The notes under the pieces are model-generated. The model had not been told where the DNA came from. It worked only from the letters and a program-made list of their open reading frames with translations, and ran no database searches. A stretch of DNA of 64,000 bases from Candidatus Pelagibacterales bacterium (lineage in GTDB: Bacteria > Pseudomonadota > Alphaproteobacteria > Pelagibacterales > Pelagibacteraceae), in NCBI GenBank assembly GCA_965235655.1, contig CBDDYU010000001.1:203791-267790 (forward strand). Direction: 5' to 3'. Below, piece after piece: positions 52,056-52,283 of this stretch. The stretch's first letter is position 1. Every line of letters begins with the position of its first letter. Both the position numbers and the translations under genes were made by a program.

Positions 52056-52283
52056 ATGGCTTATTTACTTATTTTTTTACCGTTAAGATATGTAATATCA
52101 ATGGGAAGCTGTGCTAATGGAGGTGGTTATTATCATTATTCTTATTCAGTAGTTAGAGGTTGTGATCGAATTGTACCAGTTGATATTTATGTGCCAGGAT
52201 GCCCTCCGTCTGCAGAGGCTTTGCTCTATGGTATTTTACAACTTCAAAAAAAAATTAGACGCGAAGGTAGTTTGCAAAGATAA
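52056..52283 (+). CDS. duplication-junction chimeric ORF: NuoL residues 1-10 fused in frame to NuoB residues 118-182
   Basis: [10 protein letters not shown] is identical to the start of nuoL at 60347. [14 protein letters not shown]...LQR is identical to nuoB 43795..43992. The ORF keeps the nuoL ribosome-binding context upstream and the native nuoB-nuoC spacing downstream. Expression is unknown. Confidence 0.6.

Follow-up and report, generated by a model that had tools for sequence, protein, structure and literature searches.

A 75-amino-acid open reading frame that joins the start of nuoL to the end of nuoB in a SAR11-like genome is probably not a gene of the organism, and is better read as the seam of a heterotype false tandem duplication introduced by assembly. 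Two observations on the 8.3-kb repeat that the seam divides bear on this reading: the two copies differ at sites that look like population alleles, and a phylogeny places one copy among single-copy loci of the same species and the other outside them. A genuine duplication in the cell is the main alternative, which we consider unlikely and weigh below.

The tandem repeat and its seam

The window analyzed here is a 64,000-nt stretch (G000:C1:203791-267790) of Candidatus Pelagibacterales bacterium, from contig CBDDYU010000001.1 of assembly GCA_965235655.1. The assembly comprises 1.12 Mb in 9 contigs, is 88% complete and has a G+C content of about 30%; the relatives of this genome are 0.8-1.3 Mb in size, which fits SAR11. 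The listing of open reading frames and Pfam searches gave the gene order nuoA, nuoB, nuoC-K, the 75-aa ORF, a second nuoC-K, and nuoL, M and N. Base-by-base comparison revealed a head-to-tail tandem repeat, in which each position of 43795-52085 has its counterpart in 52086-60376, exactly 8,291 bp further on. The two 8,291-bp copies lie directly against each other (gap 0) and are 99.72% identical, with 23 substitutions, no indels, and every gene intact in both. Self-BLAST of the whole genome found no other large near-identical repeats. The features of the locus are as follows.

43444-43992, + strand: nuoB, intact and full-length at 182 aa, which supplies the 3' part of the chimera
43795-52085, + strand: copy 1, containing nuoB codons 118-182, nuoC, D, E, F, G, H, I, J and K, and nuoL codons 1-10
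52056-52283, + strand: 75-aa chimeric ORF, NuoL(1-10)::NuoB(118-182), a probable by-product of the seam
52080-52091, + strand: seam CCGTTA/AGATAT, joining the end of nuoL codon 10 to the start of nuoB codon 118 without microhomology or Ns
52086-60376, + strand: copy 2, with the allele of a more divergent strain in its central 5.8 kb (54478-60260)
52286-52894, + strand: second nuoC, 2 nt past the stop of the chimeric ORF, encoding a protein identical to that of the first nuoC
60347-62257, + strand: nuoL, intact and full-length at 636 aa, which supplies the first 10 codons of the chimera and its start context

The original prediction described both breakpoints as codon-exact, and the coordinates bear this out: nuoB codon 118 starts at 43795 (43444 + 351) and nuoL codon 10 ends at 60376 (60347 + 29). 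Translation of 52056-52283 agrees with the predicted in-frame fusion of NuoL residues 1-10 to NuoB residues 118-182 behind the nuoL start context, the NuoB part reading RYVISMGSC...GSLQR after the 10 NuoL residues. The predicted native spacing to the second nuoC is also present, as TAA, AA and ATG, the arrangement found after full-length nuoB. None of this is remarkable against chance, since a fusion is in frame with a chance of 1/3 and both breakpoints fall on codon boundaries with a chance of 1/9. A scan for promoters and terminators around the seam gave no signal above background.

The junction had been further explained by a TAG microhomology with one extra A that keeps the fusion in frame. 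The join itself reads ..TTACCGTTA followed by AGATATGTA..; locally, nuoB has ..GAGCCT/AGATATG, nuoL has ..CCGTTA/GTAGC, and the seam has ..CCGTTA/AGATATG. The bases that flank the breakpoints differ on each side (T at 43794 versus A at 60376, and A at 43795 versus G at 60377), so the join is blunt, with zero microhomology. Parsing it as TAG plus an inserted A is possible and unnecessary, and we set a microhomology-mediated join aside because blunt abutment, in frame one time in three, accounts for the sequence without an extra event.

The protein encoded across the seam is a fragment of a known subunit. Residues 11-75 are this genome's NuoB residues 118-182, from the subunit that carries cluster N2 (NuoB/PSST/Nqo6, PF01058; chain B of PDB 8qby), and are nearly identical to Paracoccus NuoB. 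Pfam aligned the ORF to positions 69-128 of the 128-position Oxidored_q6 profile and to no others. Alignment to Paracoccus NuoB (8qby) supports the original description of the cysteines, in that two of the four N2 ligands are kept (those of GSCANGGG and PGCPP) and the pair of LACCAVE is absent; this CC pair corresponds to NuoB residues 61-62, upstream of the breakpoint. Unlike members of the family, the ORF lacks the N-terminal 117 residues with these CC ligands and hence a complete Oxidored_q6 domain with four Cys ligands, which makes it a fragment rather than a functional family member. With two of four ligands it should be unable to bind N2 alone.

The locus in other genomes and the origin of the two copies

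We looked for the same arrangement elsewhere. In a look-up by NuoI, the nuo operon was single-copy in all ten of the contigs listed (23 read), and in a look-up by NuoC, nuoC followed nuoA and a full-length nuoB, and not nuoK and the fusion ORF, again in all ten of those listed (23 read). Each of 27 related genomes had one nuoB match, and the locus of a relative at 94% identity (L014) was also single-copy. The junction 27-mer was absent from 185,579 species genomes, and the exact fusion protein was not on record in the public protein collections searched, although such searches cannot prove absence because contigs that contain only the junction would be too short for retention or gene calling. 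Among 5.8 billion proteins, the 75-aa ORF matched only NuoB fragments, the near-identical ones covering about 87% of the query, and its NuoL part was unmatched; with no homologue of the fusion in this collection, there is no sign of its conservation. A literature search found no paper on a nuo duplication in SAR11.

One observation from another sample stands apart. When JGI metagenome contigs were scanned with the first 30 nt of nuoL, five matched, and four of these continue into a normal nuoL. The fifth, Ga0208917_1085983 (L015; 1,173 bp, about 98% identical, aligning to window positions 59186-60376), ends exactly on the breakpoint base, the last of nuoL codon 10. We estimate the chance of such an end at about 0.0016. 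The end could mark a branch in an assembly graph, possibly the junction itself, in that other sample; a true graph branch should leave a second contig sharing the 30-mer in the same metagenome, and none was found there. We also considered a single-nucleotide polymorphism next to the breakpoint as a common explanation for the end of L015 and the seam, and ruled it out: out to 30 nt around each breakpoint, the ten same-species contigs are free of polymorphism.

The ten same-species contigs allowed the history of the two copies to be examined. They are long contigs 99.1-99.7% identical to the locus, drawn from NCBI MAGs and from ENA and JGI metagenomes by exact look-ups of the NuoI and NuoC proteins. 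The 23 differences between the copies comprise 19 synonymous and 4 non-synonymous substitutions, and 19 of the 23 are transitions. A random substitution in this sequence would be synonymous with a chance of 0.22-0.29, giving P <= 1e-7 for 19 synonymous changes in 23. The differences are not spread evenly, the first 2,392 bp of the copies being identical (P = 4e-4 under a uniform spread). Their composition points to variants long filtered by purifying selection, rather than to errors or to drift in a redundant copy. Sequencing error is ruled out as their source by the absence of indels together with the synonymous and transition bias.

At the 23 sites, copy 1 everywhere carries an allele present among the ten contigs, and at nearly all sites the majority allele. 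Copy 2 carries alleles absent from all ten at 15 of the sites, while at the other 8 its alleles segregate among those contigs; 20 of its 23 alleles match L014. Within the variable 5.8-kb patch, copy 1 shows 13.6 differences from the contigs, compared with 13.9 among the ten contigs themselves, and copy 2 shows 28-43 from each contig, compared with a contig-to-contig maximum of 27. A maximum-likelihood tree of this patch, rooted with L014, places copy 2 outside a clade of copy 1 and the ten contigs with support of 100/100. The copies of a genuine duplication would be expected to be each other's closest relatives, and here copy 1 is nearer to all ten contigs than to copy 2. The tree therefore argues that the copies did not diverge in place and, with the synonymous bias, rules out in-place divergence of true paralogues. 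By its alleles and its position in the tree, copy 2 is the allele of another lineage or strain, not a diverged paralogue.

Putative assembly pieces and a probable change of strain at or after the seam

Relative to the same-species contigs, this contig has more than 76 single-base insertions and not one deletion. The insertions are confined to discrete blocks, and we take an insertion-only profile to be typical of noisy long reads. One insertion lies at 9567, and the others fall at 19184-22218, at 32996-41124, and from about 65262 on (G000:C1 from about 269052 onward, beyond the window). The same-species contigs carry intact sufB, sufD, sufS, sufE, nadK, zapE, thiG and rne in the error blocks, so the frameshifts of the window are assembly errors, not pseudogenes. 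At 38000-41000, the window also has 17-42 private substitutions per kb relative to three same-species contigs, compared with 0-7 per kb elsewhere; this peak coincides with the densest insertion errors and could be either raw-read error or a locally divergent segment.

Between the error blocks lie clean blocks of 9.6 kb (9568-19183), 10.8 kb (22219-32995) and 24.1 kb (41125-65261). The seam cuts the last of these into parts of 10.96 and 13.18 kb, similar in size to the other clean blocks. The contig thus appears to have been tiled from pieces that belong to different molecules, and the seam to fall where two of them meet. The two putative pieces that meet at the seam are given here, private alleles being those absent from the ten same-species contigs.

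41125-52085, no strand: putative assembly piece A, 10,961 bp, with no indels relative to the same-species contigs and 5 private alleles
52086-64000 and on to about 65261 past the window, no strand: putative assembly piece B, 13,176 bp, with no indels and 30 private alleles

Private alleles are about five times as dense to the right of the seam as to the left (30 in the 13,176 bp from the seam to 65261 versus 5 in the 10,961 bp from 41125 to the seam; Fisher p = 1.3e-4), and the excess runs on into the single-copy nuoL, M and N. This excess suggests that the sequence to the right comes from a more divergent strain than that to the left, and that the source strain switches at or just after the seam. 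The identity of the first 2.4 kb of the copies means that the change can be placed no more finely than 52086-54478.

The same assembly contains other overlaps that were left unmerged. Contig C6, in reverse complement, forms a dovetail of 1,627 bp with C2 that is 99.7% identical (4 substitutions and 1 indel), and the end of C4 overlaps C9.

G000:C2:1-1627 and G000:C6:1-1628, reverse: overlap of C2 and C6
G000:C4:42572-45317 and G000:C9:940-3680: overlap of C4 and C9 at the end of C4, 94.7% identity

To judge from such overlaps, the bin holds sequence of more than one strain that the assembler did not merge, and if C6 and C2 were strung together, a duplication of the same kind as that in the nuo operon would result. 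At the other piece boundaries of the window's contig, there is no unmerged overlap of at least 40 bp, which counts against a false duplication. No Ns occur anywhere in the assembly, and the seam runs base to base.

Separately, many pairs of regions in the bin are 70-80% identical in DNA and encode full-length look-alike proteins, between C1 and C3, C5 and C8, and between C2 and C4. Examples are C1:78587-79738 with C3:9249-10400 and C1:100727-104407 with C3:250-3931, and the proteins of such pairs include an isocitrate-lyase-like protein and an 820-aa FtsX-type permease. These pairs suggest that the bin mixes contigs of two SAR11 lineages rather than containing true paralogues.

Explanations for the seam and what they imply

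False duplication of diverged haplotypes is a documented class of assembly error (Ko et al. 2022, Genome Biol 23:205, PMC9516828), and false duplications have also been reported for long-read metagenome assemblies (PMC13543314). As in that class, two allelic versions of a locus stand next to each other in one assembly and read as a false gain of genes: the adjacent copies are near-identical, their differences are population alleles, and the locus is single-copy in the same-species contigs listed. Unlike the class as described, which comes from the haplotypes of diploid vertebrates, the versions here come from strains of a metagenome, and no Ns lie between the copies. A gap of Ns is frequent in the class and not obligatory; false duplications of the scaffolding type usually leave one (PMC9516828), and its absence from the seam counts against a false duplication.

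Under a false duplication, two strains of a single SAR11-like species, present together, would each have contributed a stretch of the nuo operon. One stretch would have stopped by accident within nuoL codon 10 and the other started by accident at nuoB codon 118, and despite an overlap of 8.3 kb they would have been abutted end to end instead of merged. By another route, two such molecules could have been ligated during library preparation and the chimeric read followed at low coverage. With the blunt join in frame by a chance of one in three, the nuoL start would read the last 65 nuoB codons to their native stop, and the seemingly preserved spacing to nuoC would be nothing other than the ordinary nuoB-nuoC spacing. 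The anatomy of the seam, the allelic differences, the different strain background on its two sides, the patchwork of the contig and the single copy in each same-species contig listed are what the data show; that the join arose in software or during library preparation, and not in a cell, is what we infer from them.

Spontaneous tandem duplication by illegitimate or homology-facilitated illegitimate recombination is a known process in bacteria; when recent, such duplications consist of identical copies, as a rule with a few bp of microhomology at the join. The arrangement in the window resembles these in its head-to-tail repeat and in a novel join inside genes, from which fusion ORFs are possible, but differs in that its copies are alleles of different strains and its join is blunt. 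For the junction to be real DNA in a SAR11 cell line, which we think unlikely, DNA of another strain could have been anchored by homology downstream, in nuoL-N, with an illegitimate join at nuoL codon 10, or copy 2 of a duplication could later have been overwritten by recombination with a divergent strain. Recombination between strains would also give a strain change at the seam. A real junction requires two rare events in a streamlined genome. Both copies are clean and gene-complete with no indels between them, the error-free 24 kb around the seam could be a single accurate long read, and that seam has no Ns; against this, it has no microhomology either, and the assembly demonstrably keeps strain-level overlaps unmerged. 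Outside this assembly, the termination of L015, from another metagenome, on the breakpoint base favors a real junction, but that metagenome has no second contig from the same 30-mer, the same-species contigs listed and the 27 relatives are all single-copy, and neither junction nor fusion protein was found elsewhere. The end of L015 is the main reason why we still give a real junction some weight. The natural history that would go with it, a SAR11 subpopulation with a two-strain 8.3-kb nuoB'-nuoK duplication and an expressed fusion peptide, of which the L015 end would be the trace in a second sample, seems correspondingly doubtful to us.

Even with a genuine duplication, the 75-aa ORF would most likely be a translated but functionless by-product. 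The original prediction implied a real fusion gene whose product might compete with NuoB, and neither part finds support here, copy 2 being the allele of another strain and the encoded protein half a domain with two of four ligands and no homologue of the fusion. That the junction is real and its peptide functional, as a competitor of NuoB for NuoD or through translational coupling into the second nuoC, is in our view extremely improbable. The ORF is in frame, has the nuoL start context, stops 2 nt before nuoC and retains two N2 cysteines, but being in frame is a one-in-three chance, only the C-terminal half of Oxidored_q6 is encoded, and every point against a real junction applies here too.

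A false duplication, the reading we prefer, suggests a way to recognize such seams when reads are not at hand: the copies abut bluntly, they differ by population alleles, and one of them nests among single-copy genomes of the same species. Further signs are a shift in the density of private alleles at the seam and the coincidence of the seam with a boundary between blocks of different assembly quality. Were the junction true, it would be a rare documented SAR11 duplication built from the DNA of two strains, with nine complex I genes doubled in a streamlined genome, and even so the fusion peptide would most likely be a by-product without function. The affected genome is the representative of its species in a GTDB-based set of species genomes, and nine of its complex I genes are very likely doubled in error and its one fusion gene a phantom. 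Such a false doubling would inflate gene counts and mimic a gain of respiratory genes in a lineage noted for its near absence of paralogues.
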